Source: Myxococcales bacterium
Lineage (GTDB): Bacteria; Myxococcota_A; Polyangia; Polyangiales; Houyiibacteriaceae
DNA length: 64,000 bases
Assembly (NCBI GenBank): GCA_029861865.1
Contig: JAOTYL010000011.1
Coordinates: 84,517-148,516 of the forward strand
Direction of reading: 5' to 3'
Both the position numbers and the translations under genes were made by a program. Under the pieces are notes generated by a model. That model was not told the origin of the DNA and did no database searches. It saw only the letters and a list, made by a program, of their open reading frames with translations. This document shows positions 11,607-59,065 of this stretch, piece after piece; within the stretch, counting starts at the first letter, position 1; each line of letters starts with the position of its first letter.

Positions 11607-11660
11607 CAGCGTCAGTGCCAGTGTCAGTGCCAGCGCCCGTGGCAGTGTCAGTGCCAGCGC
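11607..11660 (+). repeat. (CAGNGY)n hexamer tandem repeat, 9 units
   Basis: cagcgt cagtgc cagtgt cagtgc cagcgc ccgtgg cagtgt cagtgc cagcgc. It is intergenic, between the secreted-protein start and the giant TPR gene stop. Confidence 0.9.
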
Positions 11661-11678
11661 GGGCGCCCGGCGCCCCTG

Positions 11679-14600
11679 CTACACCTTGATCTGGATGCCC
11701 AGCGTCTCGCGCAGTCTGAAATAGCTCTCGGAGATGCTGTATAGGACGATCTCTTTGACCTTGTCCCGCGGTGGAAGATCGGCGGTCGACTCGGACGCGA
11801 TTTGCTGCGTCATCCGCACGGCGGTGTCGACGTCGTCGCACAGAAGCAGGCCGGCCCGAAGCGAGGTGATCTCCGTCGCCTGCATCCAACGCTTGATGTC
11901 TGCCTTGCCTCCGGCTTCCAAGAACTTTCGCACGACCTTTTTGAGGACGTCCAGGTGAGCCTGATTGATGTGGCGTGCCAGCTGCTTGGCGGTCGAGTCC
12001 ACGGCTGGGTCGGCCTCGCCCATGCCGACGACACGCATCGCTGCCAAGAGGAGCGTACGAAGCTCGGTATGCGATTTGTACATCGTCCGAATGAAGTGCT
12101 CCCCGCGGTAGTAGGAGAGGTGTCGGCCGCACACGAAGGCGAGGTCGACTGGACGGTACCCCGACAGAAGCGTGTACCCGGTGATGATGGCTGGCGGGTT
12201 GCTTCGCGCCTCGTCTCGAAGCGCGCCCGAGAGCTCTTTCTGAATGAAGAGGCGAACTGGGATAGTGATGTTCAAGACGTCCTGCGCGAGCTTGAACTGC
12301 CGTGCGAGCGCGAGGCTCGGGTTGGCGAGATCTTCGGGCTTACGCTTGTGCAGGTTGAGCTTCTTGTCCGTCCAGGCCATCGACGCGCGCACCGCCGGAG
12401 CGATGACCTCCATGATCTTGGAGATGTAGATATCCTGGTCCGGGTGCATGAGATCTTTGACCCACGCCTCGTTGCTGACTCGCGCCCTCGGCTGGATCTC
12501 TCGGTCCTGCCGGTACTGCTGGAAGAACTTCTGCTGCTCCTCGTCCGCTTTGGCAAAATAGGTCAGCGTTCGCGCGATACACCATGCCTTGTCGTACGCG
12601 CGTGCATCGAAGTAGAGCTTGTAGAGCGCTCGATACGACTCGAGTCGATTCGGGTCGTGCCCAAGCAACCATTGGTGCTCCGCGATAGCCTCCGTCGTCT
12701 TGTCCGGCATCGTCGCGTAGAGCTCGGCGAGAATCTGGTGCTCGGTGGCGTCGTCCGGCTTGAGCGCCGCCGCCATCCTGAAGGACTCGGCTGCCGCGTC
12801 GAAATTGCGCTGACGGTCCCTGTAGATGATGCCGAGTGTATGCCAGAGGTTGTGCTCGAGGTCGGTATTGCCTTGGTTGATGATGCGGTGAAGCATCTTG
12901 CGGTAGGCGCGCTCGAGCGCCTTCCAGTCCTTACGACCATTCAGAAGCTTGTTGACCGCCTCGAAGGGCTTGAGCTGCGTGCTGTCGAGGTCGAGTGCCT
13001 CGTTGAACTTCTCGAGCGCAGCATCCTCGTCCTCGAGCTTGTCGCGAAGGATGACGCCCACGGTATATGCGTACTTGGCCTTGGCCTCATCACGCGCCTC
13101 GAGAGAGCTGACGCGCTCGATGACATCGATCGCCTCGGACCAACGCTGGGCAGCCTGGTATGTGCCGAGCAACTTGTGAAGCACCACGTGGTTATCGGGG
13201 TCGAGGTCGAGCGACTCCGTGAAGGCCTCTGCTGCCGCGTCTGGTGAGCCGAGCTTGTCCTGCCAAAGGTCGCCGAGCTCTACGAGCAGTTTGGCGCGGG
13301 CGGTGGGTTCATCGGTGACATCCAGAATGCGCTTCTTGTACTCGACCACCGACTCCCAATCGCTTTCGCGAGCTTGAAGGTCGACCATCGCCTCGAGTGC
13401 AGGCACGTAGTGCGTGTCCTCTTCGAGAGCCTTGTCGAACATGTTGCGCGCCTTCTTGTCCTCGCCCTGCTCACGCTTGATGACGCCAAGCCGGTATAAG
13501 ATCTCGGTGATCTCGTCCCTGCCGAGGGAATCGCGGTGTTGGACCAACAGCACTTGGTGGTATTTGAACGCGTCTTCCCATCGCTCCGCACGGAAGTAGC
13601 TTCCAGCAAGGCCCTTGATCGTCGCCGTGCCATCGGCATCGAGAGCGTGCGCGCGTTCATAGGCCGCCACCGCGGCGTCCGCGCGACCGAGGTTCGTCGC
13701 CGTCTCGCCCAACAAGGAAGCCAGGCGGTGCTGCTCGTCTCGTTCGCGCTTATCCGAACGCTTGACGAGCACCTCGAGAAGCGGGAACGCCTCTTCGTAG
13801 CGACCCTGGGCCACATAAAAGTCGACCAACGGGAGAAGCGCGTCCTCGTTGTCCGGGTCGAAGGCATGTGCCGACTCGAAGGCATCGACGGCTCCGGCCT
13901 CGTCGTCGAGGCGCTCGGCGCGAATACAGCCGAGGTCTACCAATCGCGCCGCTTTGACGCGCTCGTTGTCGGTCTGCTCGACCTCCAGGCCGAGCGTCTT
14001 CGTCGCGGCGATCCAGTCGCCCGAGTCGATGTGGATGCGCCGCATGGCTTCGAGCGACGGCAGGTCCCCCGGATCCAAATCGACCGCGCCCTGGAAGTGC
14101 TCGAGCGCCGACGCGCGGTCCCCGAGCTCCTGGTCGAGGATGCGACCCATTCGGTGCTTGAGAGACACTTGCTCGTCGACCTCGTCCACGACGCGAACCA
14201 ACTGGCCCATCATGTCGAGCGCCGCCGAATGGTCACCCTTGCGCTCATAGAGCTTCGTGAGCGCCTGGAGGCTGAGAATGTCTTGGTCGTCGAGGTTCAG
14301 GGCGTTGAGATAGCTGTCGATCGCTTGCTCGGCGTCGCCCTTGTGCGCGCCATACACCTGCCCGAGCGCGCGGAAGATCTCAATCCGTCGTTCTTGGTCC
14401 ACCGTCGCACTCGCGTGGCGGTCATAGGTCCGCACCAGGTCGTCCCACCGCTGCGTCAACCGATAGAGGTCTTCGAGCTTGCAGAGGGCTTCGTCGTGCA
14501 GCGGGTCGATATCGAGCACCTGTTCGAGGCGCTCGACGGCGTTCTCGGGCTTGCGAAACTCCTCTTCCCACATGCGGGCCAGACGAACCAGGATGTCGAT

Positions 14601-17600
14601 CCGCTCCCGCTCGGTCGCCACCACTTCGTACTGGCGTTCCAGAATACCGACGAGGTCCTGATAGCGCTCGGCTTGCTGATAGAGCCGCTCGAGCCCGCGA
14701 AGTGCAGTCAGATTCGAAGGTGCCAGCTCGGCCGCCTTCTCGAAATTCTCGATGGCTGCCTTTTGGTCGTCGAAGCGCTCCTCGTATGCCTCCGCGACCT
14801 GCAGGAGCGCCGCCACGACGCTATCGACGTCTTCGACAGCCTCGGCCTTGCGCTCGAGGATGTTGAGCAGCTTGTTGGAGCGCCCATCCTCGCGGTAGAT
14901 GCGCTCGAGCGCCTCGAGAGCGCCCACGTGCCTCTCCTTGAGGTGAAGCGCGCGCCGATAGTAGTCCTCCGCCTCTTGTCGCATTCCAAAGCGGTCCTCG
15001 GCGAGATCACCCATGCGCACGTAGGTATTGGCCTTGACGTCGTCATCGTTGGTGAGCTCGACCAGCTTGGCGAGGACTTGAGCGAGATTGTCCCACTGCT
15101 GGGTCGTCTCGTAGAGGTCGCCGAGTTGCCACCACGCCTTGGCGTTGCTCGGGTCGAGCGCTCGAATCTGCTCGTAGTACGGAATCGCGTACTCGGGATG
15201 ACCGAGGTCTTGGCCGTACCACTTGGCGCAGCAGAGGCAGATGGCGATCTGGGTGGCTGGGTCCTCCACCTCTTGGAGAGTCTGGTTGGAGGAGCTGAGA
15301 AGCTCGTTCCACTTGTCGGTCGAGGCTGTGACGCGCTCGAGGTCGAGGATGGTGTCCCGCTTGCTGTAGTCCTCGGTCCAAGCGATGTAGAGCGTATGAT
15401 AGGCCTGCTCACCATCTTCGAGTTTTTCTTCGTAAACCCGCGCAGCTGCTCGCAAAAGCTCGATGCGCTCGTCGCGGTCGTCCGTCGCTTCGATCCGCGT
15501 GACGTAGAGGTCGATCAGCTCATCCCAGCGCTCGGCTTCTTTGTGGAGCGCCTGGAGCTCGGAAAAGGCGTACTCGTGCATCGGGTCGACATCGAGGATG
15601 CGACCGAAGGCGCCCGCAGCACGGTCCTTGTCGCCAACCTCGGTCTCCCAGAGCTCGGTGACGGCGAGGAGCTGCCGCACCTGGTCGTGCGGGTCTGTGA
15701 GCGCCTGAGCGCGCTGCTCCATCACGCCGATGGCTTCCTCCCAGTCCCGCTCTTCACGATGGATGAGCTCGAGAGAGTCGAGCGCCTCGAAAAAGGTCGG
15801 GTCGACTGTCAGCACGTTGCGGTATGCCTCGACGGCGTCCCCTGGCTGCTGTAGCTCGGCACGGTAGATGTGACCGAGCTGCATGTAGACATTGACGAGA
15901 TCCGAGTCTTCGAGGGTCGCAGCGCCGACGTCGATGATGCGATGTAGAGTGTCCGCGCGTTCGCGAGACTGCCCGCTCGCGCGGAGAATCTCTGCAATGC
16001 TGAAGAGCGCGTAGGTGTTTCCCGGGTCTACGTCGAGGACCCGCTCCCAGTTTTCGATCGCATTGCGCTCGCGCTCGAGCTTCTCGTACCAAACCCGCGC
16101 CAAGTCGGAATAGACCTGAATGCGGAAGGAGTCGTCCTCGGCGATGGACGCCTCACGTTCTAGAACGTCGACTAAATCTCTCCAATTGCCCTGTGACGCG
16201 AAGATGTCGCCGAGTGCGTTGAGCGCCTCCGCATCCTCTCCCCGAAGGTCGAGAACCCGCTGCCAGAGCCCAATCGCCCGCTCCGGATCCCGCAGGCGAT
16301 TCGATGAGAGTCGGGCCATCCGCGCGAAAACGTCCGCCTGCTGCGAGTCGCCCAGCGCAATACTCAGCTCCTTTTCGAAGGCGGCAAACAGCTCGGGCCA
16401 CCGCTCGAGCTTCGCATAGATCGCCTGAAGAGCCTGAATGGTCTCGGCGTGCTCCGAATCGTAATCGTTGAGCAGCTTGGTGAAGACCTCGATCGCTCGT
16501 TCCGTACAACCGAGCTTGGTCTCGAGCTCGCGGCCCAATCGATAGTGAAGCTCGATCAGCTCGGAGGTGTTGTTGGACCCGTCGATTCGCTTGCGAAGCA
16601 CCTCTGCCAGTGCCTGATGCGCCTTGTGCTGCGAGTAGATGCGGTCGAGGGCTTTGAGGGCCGCCTCATCATGATCGTCGACGCCCAGCACGAAGCGATA
16701 GGTCGCCTCGGCTCGCTGCACGTCGTCGAGTTGCTCTTCGTAGACCCGCGCGAGCCGGCGACCGAGCTCCGCTTTGCTGAGCGGGTCACCCGTGTGCTGA
16801 ATGCCATTGGCATAGGTATTCGCCAACTGACTCCACCCGTCGACGATGGCCGATAGGCGCTCTGCCTCGCCCAGCGAATGATCGTGACTCGGATCCTCGA
16901 GCACCGCTTTTTGCATCCACTGGAAGGCGCGACCGTGGTCGTCGGCCTTGTCCTCCGCGATTTCGGCGAGTCGATGCATCATGACGACGCGTTCGATCGG
17001 ATCGCTCTGGTGCTCTACTTGAACCTCTTGGATGGACAGCAAGCGGTCCCAGTTGCCCTGCATTCTGTACAGCGGCTCGAGCACCTCACCGATCTGCAGC
17101 GGGCGTACGCCACCTGCGAAGAGATCTTCGAGGGCCGAGACAGCCGGCGAGTACTCGGGCGCAGCAGCGATGATCTCGCGATACTGTTCGATTGCCGAAT
17201 CGACGTTGCCGATCCGGTTCTGGTAAATCTGTCCCGTTCGGAACTGCAGGTTGAGCACATCCTCAGGGGTGGTCGCGATAGCCGCCTCTTTCTTGAGGGT
17301 CGCTGCGAGGTCGTCCCAGCGCTCGGTCTGCTCATAGAGGCGATCCAGCGCTTCGATGGCTGCGACGTCCCCTGCATCGATGTCGACGACGAGCTGATAT
17401 CGCTCGATCGCGGCGTCCACGTCATCGAGCTGAACCTCGTTGATCATCGCCGAGCGCTTTGCGAGGTGAACGATGTCTTCGGGCGTGTCCTCCCGATGGC
17501 GCTCGACCTCGGCATCGTACCGAGAAGCCACCTCGCGCCAACTGCCCGTTTGCTCCGCCAGCCTCTCGAGCGACGAAAGTGTCATGTCGTTTCGGACATC

Positions 17601-20600
17601 GAGCGGCAACGCGCGCGCGAACGCCCCGAAGGCCGAAGGCGGATCCTCGAGCTGAACCTCGTAGATCTCCGCCAGTTGATGGAGCATTTCGACCCGATCG
17701 GCCGGGTCTTCGGTATGCCGGACCTGTACCTCACGCGCTTCGACGAGCTTTTGAAACTCCCCGCCCTCGCGGTACACACGCTCGAGCACTTCAGCTGCTG
17801 CCAGCGGCTCGACTGCATCCCTGGTCATCGTCGTCAACGACTCGAGGGTCGGTTGGTGGTCCGAGGCCACGCTGAGAATGTCACAATAGATCTCGATCGC
17901 CTGCGCGGGGTCGTCGAGGTGACGCCGCCAGAGCTCGCCGATACGGAAGCGAATTTCTAACCGCTCCGCCTCGTCGACCATGAGGTCCGATTGGCGCTCG
18001 AGCACCTGAAGCAAGTCTCGCCACTGCCCAGTCTGCTCGAAAAGCCCGTCGAGCCGGCCCAATGCGCTCAAGTCGTCCGGGTCGATCGCGAGAACGCGCT
18101 GGTACGCTTCGATCGCCCTCTCCGAGTCCTCGAGCTGATCTTCGTGGACGCGGCCGATGGCGGTGAAGAGCTGCTTGCGCACTTCGGCATCCGTGATGAC
18201 CTCGGACTTGCGCTCGTACGTCGCGAGCAGCTCCTCCCACTTGCCAAGCCGCATCTGAAGCTCGATGAGCCGGTCGAGTGATTCGATATCGTCCGGGTCG
18301 ACCTCGAGCACCTGCCGATGGACAGCCATCGCGTCCGTGGGCTTGTCGAGAATGTCCTCGTAGATCGCCGCGGCTTTGATCAACTGTTCACGCTGGTCGG
18401 CTGGCGATGGGAGCATTCGCGCTTTGCGACGATAGATCGAGGCGAGGTCCTCGTACCGCTCCGTCTGTTGGAACAGGCGCTCGAGAGCATCGGCCGAATG
18501 ATGATGCTCCTCGTCGAGCTGCAGCACCTTCTGATAGTGCTCGACGGCGCGATCGACTTGTCCAAGCTCGTTTTCTCGGATCTCCGCGGCTCGCAACAAG
18601 AACCCCACGGCAAGCTCGGGATCGTCGAGAGTGGCGACCACTTGCTCGTAGACGCTCGCCAGCGCATCACCTCCGCCGACGGCTGCGCTCAAGCGCTCGA
18701 GCTCCTCGCGTGTCTGCGGGTGGCCTGGGTCCGCCCGGAACGCCCGCGCGAAGCTCTCGAAGGCCCCGTGGAGATCGCTGACCGAGAACTCCTGGAGCTT
18801 GGCGATCTCGTGGAACAGCTCCACGCGTCGCTCCGGCGCGGTCGCGTGGTGCGCTTGAATCTCGTACACGTCGACCAATCGCGCCGCAGCGCCCACCTCT
18901 TTGTAGATCGGCTCGAGAATGTCTGCGACCGTGGCCTGGTGCTCGGCGGACTCCAGCAGTCGTTCGAGGGCCCCCAAAGCGGCGGGATTGCTAGCGTCGT
19001 TGGCTAGCACATCGCGGTAGATCTCGATGGCGGAAACGGTCGAATCCATCCGTTGCTCTCGCAGGTCCGCAAGTCGCAACAGGAGCGCGGTCTGCTCGTG
19101 CGCGTCGTCGGTCATCGCCAGCTGCCGCTCGACATTGTCGGCGAGGTCGGTCCAGTTGCCCTGGCGAGCCAGGAGGTCGTCCAGAGCGCCCAGTGCCCGT
19201 CGACTCGACGGGTCGAGCTCGAGGATCTCGTTTTGAAGCCGGATCGCCTGCTCGGCGTCTTCGAGCAGGTCGGCCTGGATCCTCGCCATCTCGGCGAGCA
19301 CGCCGATCTTGTCGTCGGGATCCGCCGTTGCCTCGACACGCATCCGTAGAATTCCCACCAGCTCGTGCCAGCGCTGTGCGCCCCGATAGAGCCCCTCGAG
19401 GGCGTCGAGAACCTCGAAGTCGCTGGGGTCGGCCTCGAGCACCTTGCGGTACGCCGCGACCGAAGCGTCCATGTCCTGAAGCTGGGTGTCGTGGATTTGA
19501 GCGGTCTTGATCCACAGCGAACGGCTGAGGGACGCGTCATCCACGCTAGCTGCGAGATCGCCGGTGAGCTCGGCTAGCGTCGAAAATCGCTCATGTTCGC
19601 TCGCTAACATTTCGATGCGATTCAAGGTGTCGGCGTCCGACGGTTGCTCTCGAAACGCCTCGCAAAGAGACGAGAAGCCTCGATCGGCATCTCCGATGTG
19701 CTGGAAATACGTGTCGGCCACCCGAGTGAGCAGCTCGCGTCGCCGCCGGGGCTCGTTGCTGAAGCGATGTTGGACGCGGAGCGCGTTGACGTAGGCCCCC
19801 CAGTCGCCACTCAGCTCGTAGACGGGCTCGAGGACACACGAGGCCTCCGCCGCTACCTCATCGTGGCCGAGGAGCTCTTCGAGTCGCTCTTTTGCACCGT
19901 CGTGTTCCTCGATGAGCGACAGCACCTCACGATAGAGGTCCACCGCACGGGACTTGTCGTCGAGCCGGGTATCGCAAACCCGACCCAGCCGGAACTTCAG
20001 CGCCGCAAGCTCTTCTTCGGATTCAGGGCCGGCCTCGATCCGACGCTCGAGGAGCTGCGCGAGCCCCTGCCAACGGGACTCTGTCTCGTAAAGCTGCTCG
20101 AGATGGCGGCAGGCATCGGCTTGTTCGACCCCGTACTCGTCGATGATGCCCTCGAAACAGGCGATGGCCTCTTCGGTGTCATTCAGCGCATCGGCCCAGA
20201 GCTCCGCGCGCCGGTAGGCGATCTCGAGCCGCGCTTCGGGTTCTTCCTCGAGCTCGATGCGCCGCGCGTAGATCGCGAGAAGGTCGCGATACCGTTCGGT
20301 CTGGAAGTAGAGGTCGCCCAGCGCGGTAATCGCGGCCAGGTTGTCGCTCTCGAGGTCGTATACCAGCCGGAACTGTTCGACCGCATCGTCGATGCGCTCG
20401 AGCGCGGCCAAGGTCTGGCCGTAACTCAGGCGTATCGGCACCGCCTGGTGCGGATCTGCCACCGCTTCGATCGCCGACTCGTAGCCTGACACGAGGCGGT
20501 CCCAACCGTTCATCTCGCCCGCCAACCGCTCGGCATGAACGCGAGCCTCCTCCATCGAAGGCGCCAGCGCGAATGCCTCGAGATAGCGCTCGAACGCTGT

Positions 20601-32416: not shown

Positions 32417-32779
32417 GATCTCGCCCGGCGCGGCGAGGACCTCGTCGCGTCGTTATTGACCGAGCGCGGCTTCACCATCATCGGGCGCAATGTGCGCATC
32501 GGTCGATTGGAGCTCGACGTGATCGCGCGACATGGATCCTTGGTCGTCGTGTGCGAAGTGCGCTCTCGACGAAGCGCACGCCCCGTCTTTCCCGCCGAGA
32601 CGATCCGCGGCGAAAAGCTCAACCGGGTACGGCGCGCCACCGCGTTGTGGCTAAGGCAGGAGAAGCTCGGACGAGTGCAGGCGAGGATCGACGCCGCAGC
32701 AGTCGTGTTCGACGGCCGAGCGGGGGAGCCATGCATCGAGTACTACGAAAACGTCTCGTTCCCGTATCGGTCGGTCTGA
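32417..32779 (+). CDS. YraN-family (UPF0102) endonuclease-like protein; start codon unresolved
   Basis: The C-terminal 120 aa of track ORF 31997..32779 read SDLARRGEDLVASLLTERGFTIIGRNVRIGRLELDVIARHGSLVVVCEVRSRRS...AAAVVF..., the YraN pattern. There is no ATG/GTG/TTG in frame between GTG 32207 and TTG 32456. The coordinates given are the extent supported by the domain. Confidence 0.6.
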   Translation, partial: DLARRGEDLVASLLTERGFTIIGRNVRIGRLELDVIARHGSLVVVCEVRSRRSARPVFPAETIRGEKLNRVRRATALWLRQEKLGRVQARIDAAAVVFDGRAGEPCIEYYENVSFPYRSV

Positions 32780-32828
32780 CAGTGCCAGTGTCAGGGCCAG
32801 TGTCAGGGCCCAGCGTCAGCGGCAGTGT
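32780..32828 (+). repeat. (CAGNGY)n hexamer tandem repeat, 8 units with a 1-nt phase slip
   Basis: cagtgc cagtgt cagggc cagtgt cagggc c cagcgt cagcgg cagtgt. It starts on the nucleotide after the yraN-like stop and clips the last codons of the convergent SRPBCC gene. Confidence 0.9.
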
Positions 32829-33369
32829 CTGCTGCGGCGTCATCGCTGGTACCCTCCACGACCTTCTTCAGTCTCCTTAGCCCGTCCTCGTAGTCGGGGC
32901 CGACCCAGCCATCCATCATTTTTGCGAAGTAGCCGCCGACGGGGCCTGATGCCGTGCCGCTCAGGCCCCAGGTTACCTGCGTGCTCTCTCCGCTTGGCTC
33001 GAAGGTCCACTCTGCCCTGGGTTGGCCCATGTCGCCGAAATCGAGATGTGTTTCGATTCGCTTGGGTCGTTCGCTGAAGGTGATCGTTTGACTACCATTG
33101 CCGGAGTCTTCGCTCGTCCAAGTGACCTTCGCACCGACCCCAGCCTCGGGGCCGCTGTAGCTGTTTTCGATGCTGGGGTCCTTGGCCACCCAGGGAGACC
33201 ATGCGTTCCAATTTTTGAGCGTGTTCACCTGATCGAAAACCACTTCCGGGGCGGCTTCGATTTCGATCGATCGCTCGACGCGGTATTCGTTCGGAAGGAA
33301 TAGACCGACTCCGAGAACGATGAGAACGGCCGCGACCAGCAAACCTATGACGACCTTCAATGCACGCAT
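32803..33369 (-). CDS. SRPBCC (START/polyketide-cyclase-like) family protein with N-terminal TM anchor
   Basis: MRALKVVIGLLVAAVLIVLGVGLF, then ...YRVERSIEIEAAPEVVFDQVNTLKNWNAWSPW...TWTSEDSGNGSQTI... I prefer the ATG at 33369 over the track start at 33417. Confidence 0.6.
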   Translation of the reverse strand: MRALKVVIGLLVAAVLIVLGVGLFLPNEYRVERSIEIEAAPEVVFDQVNTLKNWNAWSPWVAKDPSIENSYSGPEAGVGAKVTWTSEDSGNGSQTITFSERPKRIETHLDFGDMGQPRAEWTFEPSGESTQVTWGLSGTASGPVGGYFAKMMDGWVGPDYEDGLRRLKKVVEGTSDDAAADTAADAGP

Positions 33370-33441
33370 GGTGAAAACCTCGACTGCGGAGATACCGCGG
33401 TCAGACCGAATCATCAATAGCGCTATCAGATCCGTCGGGCC

Positions 33442-38236: not shown

Positions 38237-38260
38237 CCGCTGTCGCTGGCGCTGTACCCG

Positions 38261-40745: not shown

Positions 40746-42059
40746 ATGCCGAAGTCGTGGAGTATGATTTGTGACTGCCCTGAGCTGGCGGTCGATGTGG
40801 CGCGCGACGCCGAACGAATCGGCTTATCTGTCGAGGCGATCGTGGCGGACGAGCCGGCGGAAACGGCGATCGAAGCCATATCGGCGGGCAAGCCCACGGC
40901 CCTAGCACTCGAACGCGAGATCGCGGCCGACCAGGGCGTCCAACTTGCTGAAGCGATGAGAGCGCACGAAGCCACGGTCCCCCTCGCGGTCGTCGGCCCG
41001 CAAGCGCTCGGCCTCTTGCACGACCTGGGGCTGCCGGCCGTCCACGAGACCGGCCCGATGGTGGCGATCGTCGCGCTGCTCGAGCTGCCTACGGAGCACC
41101 CCTGGGCGGCGACCACCAAAGAGCTTCCCCCGGTGGACCGGGTTCGACTGGGCGATAGCGTGAGCCACCGGGCCGAAGGCCGGTTCGTCCGGATCGACGA
41201 CGGGATGATCGCGCACGAAAGCGATGGGGGCCATAGCCGTCCGATCGGTACCCCGCGGGACGTGGCGACGGCTCTTCGAGCGATGCGAGCTTCGCACGGA
41301 GCGTCCCGACCCAAGGTGCCCGTGGTGCGAGGCGTCGAAGCCGACGCGGTGTTGGATACGATCTTGGGGCCTAGGCGCGCGCTTTCTGATCCCGCGAGCA
41401 AAGCAGCCCTCGGTCCCTACGACGTACCCCTACCTGTCGAAGAGCTGTGTGCGACACCCTCGAGGGCCGCCTCCGAAGCCTCACGAATCGGGTTTCCAGT
41501 CCGGGTTGCGCTTGCATCACCCGATCTGCGACTCTGGGATCACCCTGACCTCGCGGCAGAGGTTTTCTCAGCCGCTCAGGCGCGAGACGCGTATCGGCAG
41601 ATTATGGCATTAGCCAGGAGCCGCTCCGAAGCCGCGCGCCTCCTCGGGGTCACCGTGAGCGCGGCGACGATGGCGCGGACCCTGTTGCACGTCCGGATGG
41701 AACCGCTGCCGAGCGGCCCCGTGCTCGCCGACATCGGCTTTGCCGACCCTCACGGTCGGGCGTCAGGGGACACCACGCAAACCGTCTTGCCGGCGACCGC
41801 GCGAGCGCTCGAACAGGTCCTGCTCAGGCTCCGTGGCAGCTCTCTGTTGCTGGAGGGCGGCGCTCAAGAGCGAAAGGAGGCAGTCAGCGCGATCGGCGAC
41901 GTGCTGATGCGACTCGCCGCGTTCGTGCACCAGTGGCGTGACCAAATCGAAGCCGTCGAGGTCAACCCGCTCGCGATCCTCGTCGGTGGCGAGCTCGAGG
42001 TCCGTCAGGCGTGCGTCACCGTAGGCGACGCATTCAGCCGATCCCTCCACGCCAGCTGA
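40746..42059 (+). CDS. CoA-ligase-like / ATP-grasp_5-like protein (ADP-forming acyl-CoA synthetase beta-like), possibly degenerate
   Basis: The C-terminal half shows the pattern ...ASKAALGPYDVPLPVEE...SRAASEASRIGFPVRVALASPDL...VEVNPLAILVGGELEVRQACV. Where family members usually have SP.I.HK.D.GGV, this protein reads SPDLRLWDHPDLAAEV. The start is uncertain (track gives 40686). Confidence 0.4.
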   Translation: MPKSWSMICDCPELAVDVARDAERIGLSVEAIVADEPAETAIEAISAGKPTALALEREIAADQGVQLAEAMRAHEATVPLAVVGPQALGLLHDLGLPAVHETGPMVAIVALLELPTEHPWAATTKELPPVDRVRLGDSVSHRAEGRFVRIDDGMIAHESDGGHSRPIGTPRDVATALRAMRASHGASRPKVPVVRGVEADAVLDTILGPRRALSDPASKAALGPYDVPLPVEELCATPSRAASEASRIGFPVRVALASPDLRLWDHPDLAAEVFSAAQARDAYRQIMALARSRSEAARLLGVTVSAATMARTLLHVRMEPLPSGPVLADIGFADPHGRASGDTTQTVLPATARALEQVLLRLRGSSLLLEGGAQERKEAVSAIGDVLMRLAAFVHQWRDQIEAVEVNPLAILVGGELEVRQACVTVGDAFSRSLHAS

Positions 42060-42060
42060 A

Positions 42061-42210
42061 CAGCGTCAGCGTCAGTGCCAGGGTCAGCGCCAGTGTCAGC
42101 GCCAGTGTCAGTGTCAGCGTCAGTGTCAGTGCCAATGTCAGCGTCAGTGTCAGTGTCAGTGTCAGTGCCAGTGTCGGCGCCAGTGTCAGGGCCAGTGCCA
42201 GTGCCAGTGC
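42061..42210 (+). repeat. (CAGNGY)n hexamer tandem repeat, 25 units
   Basis: Hand-parsed from 42061: cagcgt cagcgt cagtgc cagggt cagcgc cagtgt ... cagtgc cagtgc cagtgc. The array begins 1 nt after the upstream stop codon. The five frames visible in the ORF track, plus the CAG-phase plus frame I translated by eye, contain no stop across the array. Confidence 0.95.
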
Positions 42211-42304
42211 CACCCCGTAAAGCGACTTCGTCGCCACGGGGCAGGGTGCCAGCGGAGCCCCGTGGACGACGCAAAGCGTCGACGTTACGGGGTGCCGGTG
42301 TTAC

Positions 42305-49592: not shown

Positions 49593-49877
49593 TCAGGACT
49601 CGCTGTAAGTGATGAGCTGAGCCCGAACGATATCCTCGTTGATTCCCGTTCGGATGTATTCCTTCAGGCAATCGGCAATCGTCACCATGAGGTCATCCAT
49701 TCCATTGTCCTCGATGAGCCTGGACAAAAGGGCCCTGGATTCGCGGCTGTCCTCGTCTCGCAAGAACTTGCGGACTTCTTCGATGGTAATTCCACCTTGG
49801 AAGTCGATGTAAGCGTTTTCCATGAGGTAACGCGCCAACTCGTTCACATGACCCTCCGTATCGCCTGATCCGGTCAT
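49593..49877 (-). CDS. Small acidic cytoplasmic protein, unknown function
   Basis: 94-aa ORF, 22 nt upstream of the DsbA-like gene on the same strand. It has a plausible helical composition and matches no motif I recognise. Confidence 0.4.
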   Translation of the reverse strand: MTGSGDTEGHVNELARYLMENAYIDFQGGITIEEVRKFLRDEDSRESRALLSRLIEDNGMDDLMVTIADCLKEYIRTGINEDIVRAQLITYSES

Positions 49878-49907
49878 GTATTAGACACCCGAACGCCCAA
49901 ACGGCAA

Positions 49908-52123: not shown

Positions 52124-53973
52124 TGGCGACCTGGATCCAGAAGCGCCGGGCGCGACGACGCCTGCAAGACACCGTGGGCCTTTGGTACCATCCGCAATAC
52201 AAGGCTGAGGCACTCGCCGAGAGCGCGCGCGTGCCAGGAATCGAGATAGCCCGAGGGGAAAGGATCCTCGGCGCGCTCGCTAGCGAGGACCTGATTCGCC
52301 CGAAACAAGTGCGACCGGCGCCGTTGGCCAAGCTCGCAAGCCTCGCGATGGTGCACTCCGATGCCTATCTCGAGAGGACCGCAAGGCCGGAGGACTTGGG
52401 CCAGATTTTCGGCCTCGAGCCCGCGCTGGTCGATGTCGACCCCATCCTCATCGCGCAGCGTCGCCAGGTGGGTGGGACCGTCGATGCCGCGCGCTGGGCC
52501 GCTCGCGAGCCTGGCCATCTGGCCTTCAACATCGGAGGTGGTTTTCATCATGCCGAGCCCGAGCAGGGTAGTGGCTTTTGCGTTTACAACGACATCGCGG
52601 TCGCCATCGCGTTGTTGCGTTCTGAAGGCTTCGATGCGCCCATCGCGATCATCGACCTCGACTACCATCAAGGCAACGGCAACATCGTCACCTTCGAAGA
52701 GGACGAGACAGTCTTCACTTACTCGATCCACGGTTCGGTATGGAGCCACGTCGAGGCAGCCGCCGACCAGCAGTTCTTGATGCCGTCGTATACCGATGAC
52801 GCCGCATACCTCGCCAAGCTCGACGAGACATTGCCAGCCGCGCTCGACGCCCATGAGCCCCAGCTATTGTTCTACATCGCGGGTAACGACGTGCTTCGAG
52901 GAGATCGCCTGGGCGAGTTCGCCATGACGCGAGAGGGGGTCCTCGCGCGGGATCGCCGGGTCATCGACCTGGCGCGGGCGCGGGGGTGCAATGTCGTGGC
53001 GACGCTCGGCGGCGGTTATAGCGAGGAAGCTTGGCTTTCGTCGAAGGACTTCATCCGGTGGCTCCTCACCGACGACGCCCAGATCTCAGTGGAGCCCGAG
53101 GTGAGCTTGTTCGAGCAGTACGAGGAGATCGCACGCGAGCTCGACCCATACGAGCTTCAGCGTACGAGCGGCGACTGGCAGATCACCCAGGCCGACTTGC
53201 TCGGAGACCTCGAGGGACCGCGCTACAAGTCGACCCGCATCCTCGACTTTTACTCGAAACACGGCCTCGAGTTCGCGCTCGAGAAGTACGGCCTGATGAG
53301 AGAGGCGCGCGAACGGGGCTTCGTGGAGCCGCGACTCACAGTCGACCCCACGGACCCCGAGCGACAGCACATCACCCTTCACGCCAAGAAGAACGGTCAG
53401 GAATGGTTGCTGGTAGACCTCGTGCTTCGCCGTATCCACATGGCAGCACCCAAGGGCCTCGACCCTCCTGATGATCTCGAATTTCTCTCGATCGAGTGGA
53501 TGTTGCTCCAGAACCCCACGACGGAGTTCTCGCTTCGGCAGCCCAAGTGGCCCGGACAGGATCACCCGGGGCTCGGAGTTGGCGAACAGCTCATGCACAT
53601 GTTTTTTCAAGGGGCGAAGCGGCTCGAGCTCGATGGGGTGATCAACCATCCTTCGCGCTATCACATCGCGTTCATCGGCGGCGCTCAGTTCTTCTTCTTG
53701 GATCCTGAGGTGCAGGGGCGTTTCGAGGCCATCCGCGAAGCGCTTGCCAATCTCGATCTCGCCGAAGCGGCTTGGAAGATGGAGCGGGGTGAAGTCCGCT
53801 GGGCCGATGATGGCACTCCGGTTGTGTGGGAAGCCGAGGACATCGTCGTCCCCACCAGCGATCGCCTTTTTGCCTACCTCGGCTCCCGCAACTACCAAGA
53901 ACCCCGCGCCCAAGCCCAGGCAGTGGCGAGAGCGCGAGGCATCGTTTTCGAACCTACTCGTAAGTCGTCGTAG
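52123..53973 (+). CDS. Histone deacetylase-family (arginase/deacetylase fold) enzyme fused to a roughly 290-aa C-terminal domain of unknown function
   Basis: The N-terminal approximately 320 aa carry GGGFHHAEPEQGSGFCVYNDIAVAI, IIDLDYHQGNGN and TLGGGYS. The C-terminal part (from about TDDAQISVEPEV to the end) matches no motif I recognise. The start shares 1 nt with the upstream stop (TAATG). Confidence 0.8.
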   Translation: MATWIQKRRARRRLQDTVGLWYHPQYKAEALAESARVPGIEIARGERILGALASEDLIRPKQVRPAPLAKLASLAMVHSDAYLERTARPEDLGQIFGLEPALVDVDPILIAQRRQVGGTVDAARWAAREPGHLAFNIGGGFHHAEPEQGSGFCVYNDIAVAIALLRSEGFDAPIAIIDLDYHQGNGNIVTFEEDETVFTYSIHGSVWSHVEAAADQQFLMPSYTDDAAYLAKLDETLPAALDAHEPQLLFYIAGNDVLRGDRLGEFAMTREGVLARDRRVIDLARARGCNVVATLGGGYSEEAWLSSKDFIRWLLTDDAQISVEPEVSLFEQYEEIARELDPYELQRTSGDWQITQADLLGDLEGPRYKSTRILDFYSKHGLEFALEKYGLMREARERGFVEPRLTVDPTDPERQHITLHAKKNGQEWLLVDLVLRRIHMAAPKGLDPPDDLEFLSIEWMLLQNPTTEFSLRQPKWPGQDHPGLGVGEQLMHMFFQGAKRLELDGVINHPSRYHIAFIGGAQFFFLDPEVQGRFEAIREALANLDLAEAAWKMERGEVRWADDGTPVVWEAEDIVVPTSDRLFAYLGSRNYQEPRAQAQAVARARGIVFEPTRKSS

Positions 53974-53994
53974 CGCGTTCGCAGTTCCGTCCTC

Positions 53995-54031
53995 CAAAAA
54001 ACAGCGCGGCGCCCTGCCGAAACAGGGCGCC
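53995..54031 (-). terminator. Rho-independent terminator downstream of rnpB
   Basis: The minus strand reads GGCGCCCUG-UUUCGG-CAGGGCGCC, i.e. a 9-bp GC stem, followed by GCGCUGUUUUUUGG. Confidence 0.75.
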
Positions 54032-54032
54032 G

Positions 54033-54417
54033 TGGTTAGAGGGTTCGTAAGCCGAGTTTTGTTCCCGTGCTCGTCGCCGAAACACGGGTCGCGATCATTC
54101 TTCTGGGACCGATGTCGCCATCGGCCTCGAGCGACGTTACCCGGAGACTCGGGCGGAACCACCCTGAGCGCCTCCCTATTTCGTCTTGCTTCGGATGGGG
54201 TTTGCCGTGCGACCGACGTTACCGCCAGCCCGGTGAGCTCTTACCTCACCCTTTCACCCTTACCGCGCGGCCTTTCGACGGCACGGCGGTTTGCTTTCTG
54301 TGGCACTTTCCTCGGGGTCACCCCCACCAGGAGTTACCTGGCATCCTGTCCTGTGAAGCTCGGACTTTCCTCCCGTGTGCAGAGCACACAAGCGATCGCT
54401 TGAACCTGTCTAACCGA
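54033..54417 (-). ncRNA. rnpB: RNase P RNA, bacterial type A
   Basis: The minus strand contains:
- GGGAGGAAAGUCCGAGCUUCACAGG (CR-I)
- CCACAGAAAGCAAACCGCC
- GGUAAGGGUGAAAGGGUGAGGUAAGAGCUCACC
- ACAAAACUCGGCUUAC (CR-V)
P1 can form between 5' GGUUAGACAGGUUC and 3' GAACCCUCUAACC. No credible CDS lies in this 470-nt gap. The ends are good to within a few nt. Confidence 0.9.
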
Positions 54418-54449
54418 CAGAGGGTAAGGCCGCTCGCAAGGCCCTGCAA

Positions 54450-54983
54450 CTAGATGGCCATGCCGCCTGCGCCACCTGCGCCACCTGCGCCACCTGCGCC
54501 GCCTGCGCCGCCCACGCCTCCGACTCCGCCCGCACCGCCAGCGCCTCCGACGCCGCCCGCACCGCCAGCGCCTCCGACGCCGCCCGCACCGCCAACACCG
54601 CCGACGCCGCCCGCACCGCCAGCACCGCCGGCGCCGCCCGCACCGCCCGCACCGCCGGCGCCACCTACGCCTCCAGCACCGCCGGAACCACCTGCGCCGC
54701 CTGTCCCGACATTGCCATCAGGGACGTCCGCGTCGGGCAGCCCCGCGTCAAGCACGATGACACGCTCGCAGACCTGGGTCTGGCACTCCGCGCGGGCAAG
54801 ACTGCTGCACGGCACGATGCGCCCGTCCGCGCATTTGAATTCCTGACAGCAAGCGAGGGTGTCGCTTGGATCGTTGCACAAGGCCACCTTGCCGCTCGGG
54901 CACACCGTTTCGATACCGCTGGCGCTCGAGCACCCGATCAGGAGCGCGGCAATCCCCACCAGCACGCGTGCGTACAACCTCAT
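54450..54983 (-). CDS. Lipoprotein with Cys-rich N-domain and C-terminal (Gly-Gly-X)n tail
   Basis: Lipobox LLIGC and a Cys-rich module of about 70 aa with 8 Cys residues after the lipobox Cys. About 27 consecutive GGX triplets follow (X = A/V/S/T), and the protein ends GGMAI. Confidence 0.7.
   Translation of the reverse strand: MRLYARVLVGIAALLIGCSSASGIETVCPSGKVALCNDPSDTLACCQEFKCADGRIVPCSSLARAECQTQVCERVIVLDAGLPDADVPDGNVGTGGAGGSGGAGGVGGAGGAGGAGGAGGAGGAGGVGGVGGAGGVGGAGGAGGVGGAGGAGGVGGVGGAGGAGGAGGAGGAGGMAI
54458..54700 (-). repeat. 9-nt (GGX-coding) tandem repeat inside the lipoprotein gene
   Basis: The plus strand reads gccacctgc gccacctgc gccacctgc gccgcctgc gccgcccac ..., an imperfect 9-mer array of about 240 bp. 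Confidence 0.9.
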
Positions 54984-55084
54984 CCCCTCGCAATTCTAGG
55001 CCATCGGGGTGATAGGCTCAAATCCAGCGCAAAACCCCTAGAAAATCGGTCGGGGGGGCGCGAAGCCCCGGGGGGGCGTCGCCT

Positions 55085-57454
55085 TTACGGGGCTGCCGCC
55101 GACGACTCGGGAAACGGATGGAGCACGACATCGATGATGATGTAGAGCAGCGCGATCAGACAAGCTGCTGTCTCCCACAAGTACTGCTCGTCGTACCAAC
55201 CGGCGAAGAACTGGATGATCAACCCGGCGATGACCATGGCGACCAGCGCTGCGGTATAGCGCAACCGCTCGATCGCAAGCGGGGCCATCAAGACGACGAA
55301 GCTGTAGTAGTAACAGGTCAGCTCAAAGAACCCGATGATCAATATCGTGCTGCTTGCCAAGACAGCCCATCCCGCCATGCGCCGGCCTGCCAACGCCAAC
55401 AGCACGAACATGCCGAGCAGGATCAGGCGGTGGAGCCACCGCCGGTCATGCTTCGTGTCTTTGCGGAACTGCTTCCAATGAGCCCACGGGTCTTCGAGGC
55501 TCTGATCTTTGGTGTGACGGCCGACTGTGCTCGGACGGTACGAGAGCAGGGTCGGAAGCCCCATGTGATTGGTGAGCGGGGTTTCGGCGTGTTTGAAGGT
55601 ATTGCCGAGAAATCGGGTGTGTGCGTCTACCCCGTTGATCGCCACGCTTGCCGAGCACAGCACGAGCAACCCGGCCATCCCGCCCGCGATGAAACGTTTG
55701 TCCTCGGGGCGCAGCCACGGCCCTCCGAGCTTGTTGCGTCGGACGAAACGGTCGATGATCGCTGCGCCCGGTCCGCCCGCCAACGCGGCAGGGAACAACC
55801 GCAGCAGCGCGCTCCACGACAACGCGAACCCCGAGAGCACAGGGAATCCCTTTTTCAGCAGACATACCGCGGCGACCGCCATGAAGAACCACGGAACACG
55901 CGCAAAGCTCCCGCCGGTCCAAAAGTATGCCCACGGATAGCCGGTCCCCCACACGACCACAGCAAGGGTGCACGCCCGCAGACCGAACGCCCATAGAATG
56001 AAGAGAAACGCGCCGGCGTAGAGCCCCAGGTCGATCATCGCGTAGCGAAGGATGCGCTTTCGAAATTTCTTCATCACGCCCTGGTCGACGCGCACGCTCG
56101 GGGCGTCGGGAACTTGCTTTCTCCAACCAATGTTCGTCAGGGCGGCCGCAACCATGTTGGAGATCGGGCTCGCGTTGTAACCGTGGTCCATGAGCATGTC
56201 CCGCCACCACGACGTACCCATCACGGTACGGAAAGACCGTGCATCCTGTTTGAACGCTTCCCAACGCTGCGGGGAAAAGTGCTCTTCGCAAGTCTTCGCA
56301 TAGGCAATGGCGTCATCCTCCGAGAGGTAGTGAAGCCGATTGTCGACGAGGTCTCGGATCTTCCGCCTCTGGAGATCGGCCTTTCCGCGGTCTTCGTAGT
56401 CCGCGGCGAGGACGCACTGGTAGAGCCGCTCGTACTCGTTCTCCTCGAAATACTTCGAGCCGATATAGTAGTGGAAGGTGTCCCAGTAGTGGACGATTCG
56501 CGAGCTATGGTACGTGCCAAAGTTCACCCACGCAGCGCCGCACGCGAGGATTACCCACACCAGTGCCCCGCGCTCCCACCAAAGCGATGCACCGCCGCCC
56601 TTCGTTGCGAGCCAAAGGCCGCGTATACCCCAGGCAGCGACCAGGCCCCCCAACAGGTAAAGGCCCCAGTCTGCAAACCACGGGGCGTGTCGCGCGTAGT
56701 AGAACCGGTAGCTAGCGATCGCCAACATCGCGAGGGCCAACGACACCGCGACCCCGAGCGCAGTCTTGCTCCGCTCTACACGAAAGAGGGCGATGAAGAA
56801 CATGAGACCAAGGAAGGCGAGACCAAGCCGGTAGCGATGGTCGCGCTTCTGCATGATCCCCTTCCACCAGCCACTCGCGGTGGCCTTGACCTCGACCGGC
56901 GGAGGCCACTTTGCGGGCTGCTGGCAGAAGACCTGGACCTCACTGAGGCTGTAGTAGCCGTCACCCCCTTCCGCGCGCAGTCGAACGTAGCGGCCTTGGG
57001 CATCGAGGGTTCTCGAACCACGTCGACGCATGCCTTGGCCTGAAGCGGGGTCTGCGGTCCAGAGGCGCACGAAGGTCTCGCCGTCTTCCGACGACTCGAG
57101 GATGTAGTCGTCGTTGTTGTCGCCTTGGAGGTCGACCGCGGTGATTCGCACCGGCTGCCCGAGGTCATAGACCACGTGACTGGTGGCGTCGGTCAAGATC
57201 GCCGTCAGGTCGCTCTCCCACACGTCGCCCTCGGCGGTCATGACGCCGTTGGTAAGCCGACGAGCGAAGCGCGCTCCCTTGGTGGCGGAAGGCGATTTAC
57301 CCGCAAGCAAGTTCCCAGGCGGGCACGAACCCTCCTGTGCGTCCGCGGACGCCGCCGTTGCCGTCAAGCAAAGCAAGAAAATGATGGCCCCTCGCACCAC
57401 GACGGCGCGCACCGTAGGCAACGGATCGGCTGCTGACAAGCCGGCAACGCTCAT
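55085..57454 (-). CDS. Discoidin (F5/8 type C) domain fused to a large polytopic membrane domain (GT-C-like?), unknown function
   Basis: Signal/anchor, then ...VVYDLGQPVRITAVDLQGDNNDDYILESSEDGETFVRLWTA...GRYVRLRAEGGDGYYSLSEVQVF, which is the discoidin pattern. The remaining approximately 590 aa contain at least 12 hydrophobic helices. Confidence 0.6.
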   Translation of the reverse strand: MSVAGLSAADPLPTVRAVVVRGAIIFLLCLTATAASADAQEGSCPPGNLLAGKSPSATKGARFARRLTNGVMTAEGDVWESDLTAILTDATSHVVYDLGQPVRITAVDLQGDNNDDYILESSEDGETFVRLWTADPASGQGMRRRGSRTLDAQGRYVRLRAEGGDGYYSLSEVQVFCQQPAKWPPPVEVKATASGWWKGIMQKRDHRYRLGLAFLGLMFFIALFRVERSKTALGVAVSLALAMLAIASYRFYYARHAPWFADWGLYLLGGLVAAWGIRGLWLATKGGGASLWWERGALVWVILACGAAWVNFGTYHSSRIVHYWDTFHYYIGSKYFEENEYERLYQCVLAADYEDRGKADLQRRKIRDLVDNRLHYLSEDDAIAYAKTCEEHFSPQRWEAFKQDARSFRTVMGTSWWRDMLMDHGYNASPISNMVAAALTNIGWRKQVPDAPSVRVDQGVMKKFRKRILRYAMIDLGLYAGAFLFILWAFGLRACTLAVVVWGTGYPWAYFWTGGSFARVPWFFMAVAAVCLLKKGFPVLSGFALSWSALLRLFPAALAGGPGAAIIDRFVRRNKLGGPWLRPEDKRFIAGGMAGLLVLCSASVAINGVDAHTRFLGNTFKHAETPLTNHMGLPTLLSYRPSTVGRHTKDQSLEDPWAHWKQFRKDTKHDRRWLHRLILLGMFVLLALAGRRMAGWAVLASSTILIIGFFELTCYYYSFVVLMAPLAIERLRYTAALVAMVIAGLIIQFFAGWYDEQYLWETAACLIALLYIIIDVVLHPFPESSAAAP

Positions 57455-57643
57455 TCAAAGGAGGCGAGGTCGATCCGGTAGATTCGGAACGGTGGGCTGA
57501 GCGGACTGCCGGAGATCGACGCGAGGATATCGCTATAGATCGCGTAAAGCTCCCCTTCCGCTGGCCGCACCGTCGATGTCCCTTGGTTCATTCGACGGAC
57601 ATTGACAGAGCGACTGCCCGCAGATCCAGCCTCCCCGAGCGAT

Positions 57644-57675
57644 TAAAAAGGGTGCCGCCGAATGGCGACACCCTC
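57644..57675 (-). terminator. Rho-independent terminator after the sigma-region-4-like gene
   Basis: The minus strand reads AGGGUGUCGCC-AUUC-GGCGGCACCCU followed by UUUUUAAUC. A T-run on the other side (CCCCCTTTTG) could make it bidirectional. Confidence 0.7.
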
Positions 57676-57700
57676 CCCCTTTTGCCCTTGGAGTGGCTCG

Positions 57701-58231
57701 TTACGTCACGTAGTCCTTTAAGCGATCGACGGCTTGGTAGTCCTGTAAGCGCGCAAGGCCCGCGGTCTCGACTTGGCGTACGCGTTCGCGGGTGAGGTTC
57801 ATGATCTCGCCCACCTCTTCGAGTGTGATGCCCCCGCGGTCTGCCACGTCGAGCGCGCAGGTTTCGGTCATCTCCCAGATTTCGAGATCGGGGAAGTTGA
57901 GCTTGATCGAGCCACGCACCGGGTGAACGTCGATGTACAGGTGGTACTTGCACGATACGAACGGGCATGGCCGCTCCATATCCTTGCACTCCGACCGGCT
58001 TCTTGGCTTCCAGTAGTCGGTCTCCGGATAGAGCTCACGACCACGGTTGAGCTCTGCCTTGCTCAGGCGACGAATCGAGATGGTGCGTGCACGGGCCCTC
58101 GATCGACGCTTGCGCCGCCCCCGACGCTCTTCCTGGTCCGGTTCTTGTAGAGCGTCCGCCAACGACTCCCGTTCTTCGCCCTCGGAGCTCGCTTCTGCGT
58201 CCACGGCGTTCGTGCTTGCTGCGTCCTTCAT
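57701..58231 (-). CDS. Sigma-70 region-4-only HTH protein with charged N-terminus and Cys cluster
   Basis: The C-terminal [28 protein letters not shown] matches the region 4.2 HTH pattern. It is preceded by [19 protein letters not shown]...ETCALD (4 Cys) and by an Asp/Glu-rich then Arg-rich N-terminus. No sigma regions 2 or 3 are present. Confidence 0.6.
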
Positions 58232-58254
58232 TGGAATCTCCCCCTCAAACCTCT

Positions 58255-58812
58255 CTAGACAGCTGCTCGAGCCATGCGAGCGCGCATCGTGAGCCGCCGC
58301 TCGATGACTTCGAGCTTTTCAACGAGCTCCTTGCCGAGCTCGCGCACTTCGTGGAGCGCGTCGTGGACCCCCGGATCCTCGGTGGCCGCGCGCTGCTGGT
58401 CGTCAATCGCGTTCTCGATCGCCTGATAGACGCGGTCGAGCTGCCGGCTCAACGCATCGATATCGCCTCGCACGAAGAGGAACTCCTTTTGAATTTCCTC
58501 CATCGTGAAGCCCTGATGCATCAGCCGACGGATGTGATCGATTTGGCGAACCGCCGTCGCTGGGTAGAGACCTTGAGACCCTCGGTGCTTGCCCTTGCGG
58601 CCGACGCGCACGCTTCGCGGCAACAAGCCGAGCTGCACGTACTTGCGGAAGGTCGCCTCCGTGAGGCGAGAGCCGCGCGCGGTGAAGGCATCGACGATCT
58701 GCTGGACGCTCATCCCATTGGCGTGGGCGCGCTCGATCTCTTCGAGCTCCTCGCTGGACCAGCTCTTTTCTGGTTCCCGATGCGGCCTATGTTGTCCTCT
58801 TGGTAGAGTCAT
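58255..58812 (-). CDS. MerR-like HTH protein with C-terminal coiled coil
   Basis: [10 protein letters not shown]...[15 protein letters not shown]...[28 protein letters not shown] resembles a MerR wing plus dimerisation helix. It lies 23 nt upstream of the sigma4-like gene. Confidence 0.45.
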
Positions 58813-58946
58813 TTGAATAGCTTATAGCGAATGTATTCCATTGAAGAGAATCACGTCAACGCAAAAAGACATCGTATTGCTAAGTTTGCGAAATTGCTTG
58901 TTTTTTGTCGCAGCTTTTCAAGCTGCCGGCCCTCTTTGACGAAAAA

Positions 58947-58978
58947 TGCCGATCGTAACTAGCTACTGACGATCGGCA
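58947..58978. other. Perfect 10-bp inverted repeat TGCCGATCGT-N12-ACGATCGGCA in an AT-rich divergent intergenic region
   Basis: Read directly from the sequence. It lies between the MerR-like gene start (58812) and the ABC permease start, directly abutting the hexamer repeat. Confidence 0.6.
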
Positions 58979-58993
58979 GCGACGGCGATCTCG

Positions 58994-59065
58994 GCACTGC
59001 CGCTGACACGGACACTGTCGCTGGCACTGCCGCTGACTCTGCCCCTGACTCTGCCCCTGACTCTG
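58994..59065 (-). repeat. (CAGNGN)n hexamer tandem repeat, 12 units, inverted orientation
   Basis: The plus strand reads gcactg ccgctg acacgg acactg tcgctg gcactg ccgctg actctg cccctg actctg cccctg actctg. This is the reverse complement of CAGTGC/CAGCGG/CAGTGT/CAGAGT/CAGGGG units. Confidence 0.9.

Follow-up and report, generated by a model that had tools for sequence, protein, structure and literature searches.

Where does a family of short tandem arrays that stand at gene ends come from? The question is raised by a 64,000-nucleotide (nt) stretch, here called the window, of a Myxococcales bacterium (assembly GCA_029861865.1, contig JAOTYL010000011.1, forward-strand positions 84,517 to 148,516). 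An initial annotation had noticed four arrays of a degenerate hexamer, (CAGNGY)n, at gene boundaries in this stretch. The genome under study, G000, comprises 4.23 Mb in 23 contigs with 62% G+C, and the window is C14:84517-148516 in our contig numbering. Elsewhere in G000 the same hexamer flanks a recurring cassette of two small convergent genes for four-helix-bundle proteins (PF05635). This feature had been overlooked, and no copy of the cassette lies within the window. Comparing the two, we consider that the window arrays, together with a fifth, three-unit stub, are probably the solo arms of such intervening-sequence-type cassettes, remodelled by slippage.

The four arrays belong to a large family. 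A genome-wide scan for strict arrays, defined as at least 5 CAGNGY units, returned 89 (46 plus-strand, 43 minus-strand); three fifth-order Markov simulations of the genome returned 0. When the sixth position was left free (at least 5 CAGNGN units), there were 132 arrays of 5-40 units each, totalling 11.65 kb, again with 0 expected. These data exclude a chance origin. Within the unit, the C, G and G of positions 1, 3 and 5 are 99% invariant, as against 94% for the A of position 2. The two variable positions, 4 (T 62%, C 31%) and 6 (C 41%, T 38%, A 12%, G 8%), differ mostly by transitions. Such a C-A-G-x-G-x pattern is unlike neutral decay, and the uneven conservation of the unit suggests a continuing sequence-specific constraint.

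The gaps between paired arrays hold the cassette genes, A (108 amino acids, aa) and B (109 aa), which converge on each other and whose products are 58% identical. We found 7 full copies of the 834-bp cassette core, at 85-91% nucleotide identity, and 4 truncated deletion derivatives. All copies adjoin arrays unless a contig end cuts them. Cassettes in other species of the genus are likewise bracketed by (CAGYGN)n. Reading along the sense strand of A, the order is array, a conserved GTGATCTA..GATCATC linker, a hairpin of ~80 nt, gene A from its ATG to its TAG, gene B in the opposite direction, a hairpin of ~75 nt, AAGGAGTGC and the second array, each gene thus being preceded by its own hairpin. 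The junctions are fixed (...CAGTGT/GATCTA on one side and AAGGAGTGC/CAG... on the other). In both arrays the CAG strand is the sense strand of A, and the two arrays are in direct orientation in all copies. Composites take up the entire spacer between convergent host genes, and their arrays abut the stop codons on both sides.

Both proteins exceed the profile cut-offs of PF05635 (23S rRNA intervening-sequence protein, 33.8 bits) and TIGR02436 (four helix bundle protein, 24 bits), A with 47.2 and 47 bits and B with 65.2 and 64 bits. They are S23p/Avd-like proteins, a gene type first seen in 23S rRNA intervening sequences. Their nearest solved structure is 2GSC from X. campestris, cited as a homopentamer (PMC4990558). 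The ratio of nonsynonymous to synonymous substitution (dN/dS) is 0.14 for A and 0.07 for B at a dS of ~0.47, and ordinary orthologs shared by G000 and its relative G014 have a dS of 0.55-0.69. Both genes are under purifying selection. The two hairpins fold with -60.5 kcal/mol (z -7.1) and -64.7 kcal/mol (z -9.8) and bury the ribosome-binding sites; across species, the hairpin 5' of A carries compensatory changes at 10 of its 24 pairs.

Because the arms are direct repeats, recombination can remove the genes and leave a solo array. We propose that a cassette would lodge in short spacers at gene 3' ends, and that homologous recombination between its 60-240 bp direct arms would then eliminate the genes, a single clean solo array being left behind. 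Such arrays would go on to grow, shrink and decay through slippage or unequal exchange. They would survive only where they are harmless, either beside stop codons or in-frame as hydrophilic linkers. Descent from cassette arms is the most likely origin of most solo arrays. The simplest candidates for keeping the C-A-G-x-G-x core are A and/or B themselves, which would read it. Unit flavour is also species-specific: the listed arrays of G011 are almost all CAGCGY and those of G002 mostly CAGTGT, and cassette arms carry the flavour of their species' arrays. This species-wide flavour likewise suggests either constraint or a recent common origin of the arrays of a genome.

We compared the window with relatives (numbered G genomes, mostly metagenome-assembled genomes, MAGs), using 80-kb syntenic stretches of G005, G021, G012 and G024 and 25 kb of G014, the closest relative. 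The features concerned are listed in Table 1. For the four arrays first noticed, positions and unit counts were as the initial annotation had given them, and Tandem Repeats Finder called period-6 repeats at 11603-11660, 32780-32829, 42061-42209 and 59011-65. Their distances to gene ends were also borne out. The array at 11607 lies 18 nt past the stop (11679) of a minus-strand 3351-aa gene, the array at 32780 begins at the first base past the stop of a plus-strand gene (32456-32779), and the array at 42061 begins 1 nt past the stop at 42059. The fourth array has a conserved GGAAATTGAC box just downstream and stands 45 nt from an ATG at 59111 that is kept in relatives. The stub had been missed. 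The remark that no flanking inverted repeats were seen is not quite accurate, because a hairpin adjoins the 25-unit array; a 79.5%-identical copy of this hairpin lies at C23:291947-292029, and half-copies occur at further genome sites.

Table 1. Hexamer arrays of the window and the adjoining hairpin (window coordinates)
Feature	Position	Strand	Remarks
Solo (CAGYGY)n array	11607..11660	+	9 units, one degenerate
Solo array	32780..32828	+	8 units, 1-nt slip
3-unit stub (CCGCTG TCGCTG GCGCTG)	38237..38254	-	Between stops of convergent genes
Solo array	42061..42210	+	25 units, between convergent genes
Degenerate solo array	58994..59065	-	~12 units, divergent spacer
Near-perfect 86-nt hairpin	42210..42296		Directly abuts 25-unit array; -55.6 kcal/mol, z -4.9

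The arrays at 11607 and 32780 were seen in G000 only and are absent at these junctions in G005, G021, G012 and G024. The first of them forms the right edge of a ~15-kb G000-specific island. The other two are shared, among the syntenic stretches, by G014 alone, in the same orientation and with different units and lengths: the array at 42061 is shorter in G014, and the array at 58994 is absent in G005 and G021. At the junction where G000 has its three-unit stub, G014 has ~8-10 units. Downstream of the gene that ends at 42059, 5 of 27 species have an array in the spacer, at differing positions and in both orientations. In G046, G004 and G012 the arrays are at other positions and in the opposite orientation, and 22 species have none. 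This spacer was colonised several times.

Two further junctions involve cassette genes themselves. The composite at C6:495494-496633 is present in G000 only, and 29 other species have neither cassette nor array there; the array is therefore not visibly older than the cassette. At the w30/w31 junction, G021 carries gene A, its hairpin and a 17-unit array that reaches the neighbour's stop. At the same junction G005 and G024 have degenerate array stubs only, and G000 and G014 have nothing.

Two side observations concern these sites. The island spans C14:80950-96100, which is window positions ~1-11600 plus the preceding 3.5 kb, and occurs in G000 only; in G005, G021 and G024 the ortholog of C14:77550-80903 comes immediately after the 3351-aa gene. 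At the gene end at C6:496634, the host stop has been remodelled in G000 from VRRE-stop to VRREQ-stop, with the array starting at the next base.

The initial annotation had taken the hexamer for a lineage-specific, mostly intergenic repeat family, and this holds: among 24 congeners, 19 have the hexamer, and it occurs in 0 of 16 other families of the order. Across 25 genomes of the genus, the number of array matches correlates with the number of four-helix-bundle gene matches (Spearman 0.76, p 9e-6). Among the five species without arrays, four lack a four-helix-bundle gene; in the fifth, G015, stop codons interrupt every copy. PF05635 genes in other families of the order also come with period-6 arrays of different motifs, such as (GARCGK)n in G036, (CTCGGN)n in G032, (RCCGYG)n in G028 and others. 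G036 has convergent pairs of four-helix-bundle genes with direct (GARCGK)n arms, and the same hexamer has 308 matches in that genome, spread over many loci that lack such genes; six other genomes, G000 among them, have 0. More widely, of 68 PF05635 open reading frames (ORFs) from a Myxococcota-wide sample, 47 have an array of period 5-9 no more than 250 nt away, and the motif varies by lineage; single PF05635 genes in this sample usually have inverted arms of period 7 or 8. Since arms with lineage-specific motifs recur across the phylum, they look intrinsic to the PF05635 gene family.

We also looked for carriers and cognates outside this group. Phage carriage was rejected: of 87 viral contigs with (CAGYGY)6, none has a nearby four-helix-bundle ORF. 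Among 118 genome contig loci with at least 8 units, the cassette occurs in myxobacterial ones only. Single array matches in Shewanella, Acetobacter, Streptomyces and others were judged unrelated.

The main rival to the solo-arm origin puts the arrays first. A self-propagating or seeded (CAGYGN)n microsatellite would spread by itself, and the cassette, like a second repeat termed E2, would home into existing arrays, for example through RecA recombination of an excised one-array circle that splits its target into direct halves. We regard this as unlikely, but several points favour it and weigh against descent from cassette arms. Both flanks are direct and variable in length, and direct-repeat flanks are the expected outcome of insertion into a pre-existing array too. 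Solo arrays are about ten times as numerous as cassettes (~110 against ~11). Arrays are numerous in G019 and G020, and their assemblies contain no PF05635 gene; these two MAGs are fragmented and built from short reads, and 1-kb repeat-flanked cassettes may have been lost from them. E2 abuts an array in one fixed orientation in 13 of 28 matches, and arrays could therefore be general landing pads. A plasmid-like segment bears an array as well. Beyond these points, no transposase, recombinase or target duplication was found for cassettes or arrays, and the correlation across species is uncorrected for phylogeny. The w30/w31 junction is the sole one with a direct series from gene plus arm to solo relic, and our 3616 genes (92% coding) were called with a self-trained codon model, not by standard annotation.

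Other evidence speaks against arrays that came first. This rival offers no mechanism for seeding one hexamer at ~130 loci, and it fits less well with empty sites such as the array-free C6:495494 site. PF05635 genes elsewhere in the phylum have private arms, in genomes where no dispersed family was seen. Finally, two independent lineages each have one hexamer common to cassettes and solo arrays, an arrangement that homing could also yield.

Two elements that touch arrays deserve description in their own right. E2 is a hairpin-forming repeat of ~160 nt, found for example at C6:420838-421010 and at ~27 other sites, with copies 88-94% identical. It ends in CCTACTCCTCGAGAA and has no match in Rfam; a related hairpin fills one spacer of G017. 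The plasmid-like segment, 5.9 kb within C6:1-6189, has a 44-nt sequence plus array at both ends, in identical copies. Among its genes are relaxase-like and MobC-like ones and a reverse transcriptase of group-II-like type (2742-3746); one ORF contains an HSHEVV motif and has no Pfam match. An IS200-like ORF at C6:480-1379 has no Pfam match. One possible explanation of the segment is a circular element that became linked to the chromosome contig through the array common to both.

The position of arrays relative to genes raises the further possibility of a host function, in which the arrays would be bound by A/B or some other protein and would punctuate transcription or replication where genes end. 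Placement at gene ends, as first described, is confirmed: facing 3' ends lie at a median of 14 nt, 50 of 107 of them within 10 nt, and facing 5' ends at a median of 83 nt. Solo intergenic arrays are enriched in convergent spacers (38%, against 18% of all spacers) and depleted in divergent ones. The four invariant unit positions and the basic nature of A and B (pI 9.6 and 9.3) would also suit such a role. However, the proximity to stops arises partly because spacers are small. Orientation to the upstream gene is random (19 with, 24 against), five congeners are array-free, and at orthologous sites the arrays are mostly species-specific, with no conservation even at ~80% protein identity. A link to replication was rejected, array strand being independent of local GC skew and gene-strand bias. 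The arrays have no terminator-like structure or self-structure, and single array strands fold no better than shuffled sequence (z -0.8 and +0.16). The last result does not bear out the CAG/CTG-type slipped structures that had been envisaged. Because the arrays are not conserved at orthologous sites, a conserved punctuation role, which the initial annotation had also entertained, is improbable.

Other descriptions of the arrays stood up. They are not CRISPR-like, the units being contiguous without unique spacers, and not REP-like, as they contain no palindromic unit. Unlike phase-variable contingency simple sequence repeats, they stand at gene 3' ends and not in promoters or 5' coding sequence, and with a 6-nt unit a change in unit number keeps the reading frame. 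They cluster, with 16 neighbour gaps below 3 kb against 6.4 expected, and the strands of neighbouring arrays agree only a little more often than expected by chance (p about 0.02-0.03).

The suggestion that the arrays are tolerated only outside coding sequences was right in part. Of the 132 arrays, 98 (74%) are fully intergenic and 10 touch a gene end, but 24 lie in-frame inside predicted genes. The latter use two reading frames only, giving (D/G/A)T or (S/A)(V/E) linkers. As separate observations, the arrays at C3:18985-19158, C5:61121-61228 and C23:93353-93412 are translated in-frame within real genes. These encoded repeats make up a (DT/GT)n linker that follows a TonB-type receptor's signal peptide, the N-terminus of a regulator of FHA/sigma-54 type, and a tail at the C-terminus of ribosomal protein S6. 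In the window, the convergent gene 32803-33417 ends in a TGA that is supplied by, and lies inside, the array at 32780.

How do these cassettes compare with known systems? The 23S rRNA intervening sequences of Coxiella burnetii and Leptospira carry an S23p ORF; their mobility is a long-standing suspicion, and no enzyme for it is known (Warrier et al. 2016, PMC4990558). The likeness extends to the PF05635 four-helix-bundle gene family, to short tandem repeats beside the ORF (in Coxiella 2-4 GACAGAT heptamers, strain-variable in number; PMC4990558) and to a long stem that hides or removes the ribosome-binding site. In contrast, the cassettes described here lie between protein-coding genes, mostly convergent pairs, and not in a 23S rRNA helix. 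Their repeat is hexameric, with up to 40 units per array, they hold two convergent paralogous genes, each with its own hairpin, and ~110 solo arrays are dispersed through the genome. Their arms are direct in all copies and therefore cannot pair around the genes. In the literature, the Coxiella heptamers were the only link we found between an S23p/four-helix-bundle gene and tandem repeats.

The GGGNATC heptamers of Xanthomonas and Nostoc (Rehm et al. 2015, PMC4692102) resemble the solo arrays. They too are short-unit arrays that occur genome-wide and are over-represented in non-coding DNA, concentrated at most 50 bp from stop codons, fewer between divergent genes and variable in unit number (2-26). 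Those heptamers, however, are G-rich and quadruplex-forming with a preference for four units, whereas the arrays described here have no G tracts, no self-structure, and 5-40 units with no mode at four. S23p and four-helix-bundle genes are unmentioned in that paper (PMC4692102).

Cyanobacterial STRR arrays, reportedly described by Mazel et al. in 1990, resemble the present arrays in being short-unit arrays that are dispersed and restricted by lineage, and differ in their heptameric unit. We know of no gene reported to be associated with them.

REP/REPIN-RAYT systems, reportedly described by Nunvar in 2010 and by Bertels and Rainey in 2011, offer a functional parallel. In both cases dispersed, lineage-specific intergenic repeats lie mostly at gene 3' ends and a cognate gene is flanked by the repeat. 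The present system works like REPIN-RAYT yet fails its defining features: the repeat is a tandem hexamer, not a palindrome, and the flanked gene is multi-copy and encodes a 108-aa helical bundle without HUH/Y1 motifs. New here are the hexameric direct arms, the convergent paralog pair, the massive build-up of solo arms, and evidence of gain and loss between species. We tentatively extend the parallel, as a possible but doubtful generalisation, to PF05635 proteins and their cognate short tandem arrays as one self-propagating, REPIN-RAYT-like system without a canonical transposase. In it, the proteins would read the repeat, host recombination or replication would move or amplify arms and cassettes, and solo arms would pile up as a dispersed repeat family. 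In the present system, where the upstream array has opposite sense for the two genes, A and B may each read one strand.

A different role for the proteins is suggested by Avd, the accessory protein of diversity-generating retroelements (DGRs), which belongs to the four-helix-bundle superfamily (PMC10053308). A and B share this superfamily and are likewise small and basic. In such a scheme, an Avd-like protein and a reverse transcriptase would add hexamers by templated synthesis, in a telomerase- or DGR-like manner. Besides the Avd-like nature of PF05635 (PMC10053308), the scheme would be compatible with the one reverse-transcriptase gene that lies between two arrays (C6:2742-3746) and with the predominance of transitions at the variable unit positions. 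Unlike in DGRs, no reverse transcriptase stands beside any G000 cassette, and most of these genomes have none; a DGR template/variable repeat pair was not found here. The sole G000 reverse transcriptase is group-II-intron-like, scores below every curated cut-off and is not DGR-type. Of 31 genomes of the genus, 5 contain RVT_1, with no correlation between its presence and arrays (rho 0.11). Because RVT_1 is rare and absent from most array-rich genomes (among them G004, G005, G012, G014 and G021), its distribution across the genus excludes the reverse-transcriptase route, and templated synthesis as a whole is very improbable.

The solo-arm origin bears on questions beyond this window. Dispersed arrays of 6-9-nt units are known in bacteria (PMC4692102), and a source for them has so far been unproposed. 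For the large PF05635 family a structure has been solved and no function is known beyond retroelements, and intervening sequences have been suspected to be mobile for 30 years with no evidence of movement. The genus offers many intact, selected cassette copies in one genome, filled and empty orthologous sites, a decay series from gene plus array to stub, ~110 solo arms and an independent replicate with another hexamer. The link between the gene family and short-unit repeat families is now directly testable. If a self-propagating system of this kind were true, it would give an origin for unexplained 6-9-nt families such as the Xanthomonas/Nostoc GGGNATC heptamers and cyanobacterial STRR, and a function for a large protein family of unexplained role. 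In practice, the arrays break short-read assemblies (7 contig ends of G000 lie inside arrays), and they yield spurious ORFs and in-frame linker insertions in real proteins.

Several other repeats and features were observed in the course of this work. Rfam gave no match for arrays or cassette, and its sole match in the window is the class A RNase P RNA at 54032-54413 on the minus strand (RF00010, 298.7 bits). Beside the RNase P gene, window positions 54462-54703 hold a 9/27-nt tandem repeat, GCCGCCTGC, in ~27 copies, the 27-nt unit in ~8 copies. It lies inside a predicted minus-strand ORF, 54450-54977, that has no ortholog at the same position in five relatives. In G036, locus L202 carries a perfect (CCACTC)18 at 2273-2380 beside a (GGGAAC)n cassette arm, which makes a second hexamer at that locus. 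Finally, another GC-rich repeat (..CACCGCCCCGCCCACCCCCACCCGTAATCC..) occurs in convergent spacers of several congeners, including spacers in L173, L174 and the G021, G012 and G005 stretches.

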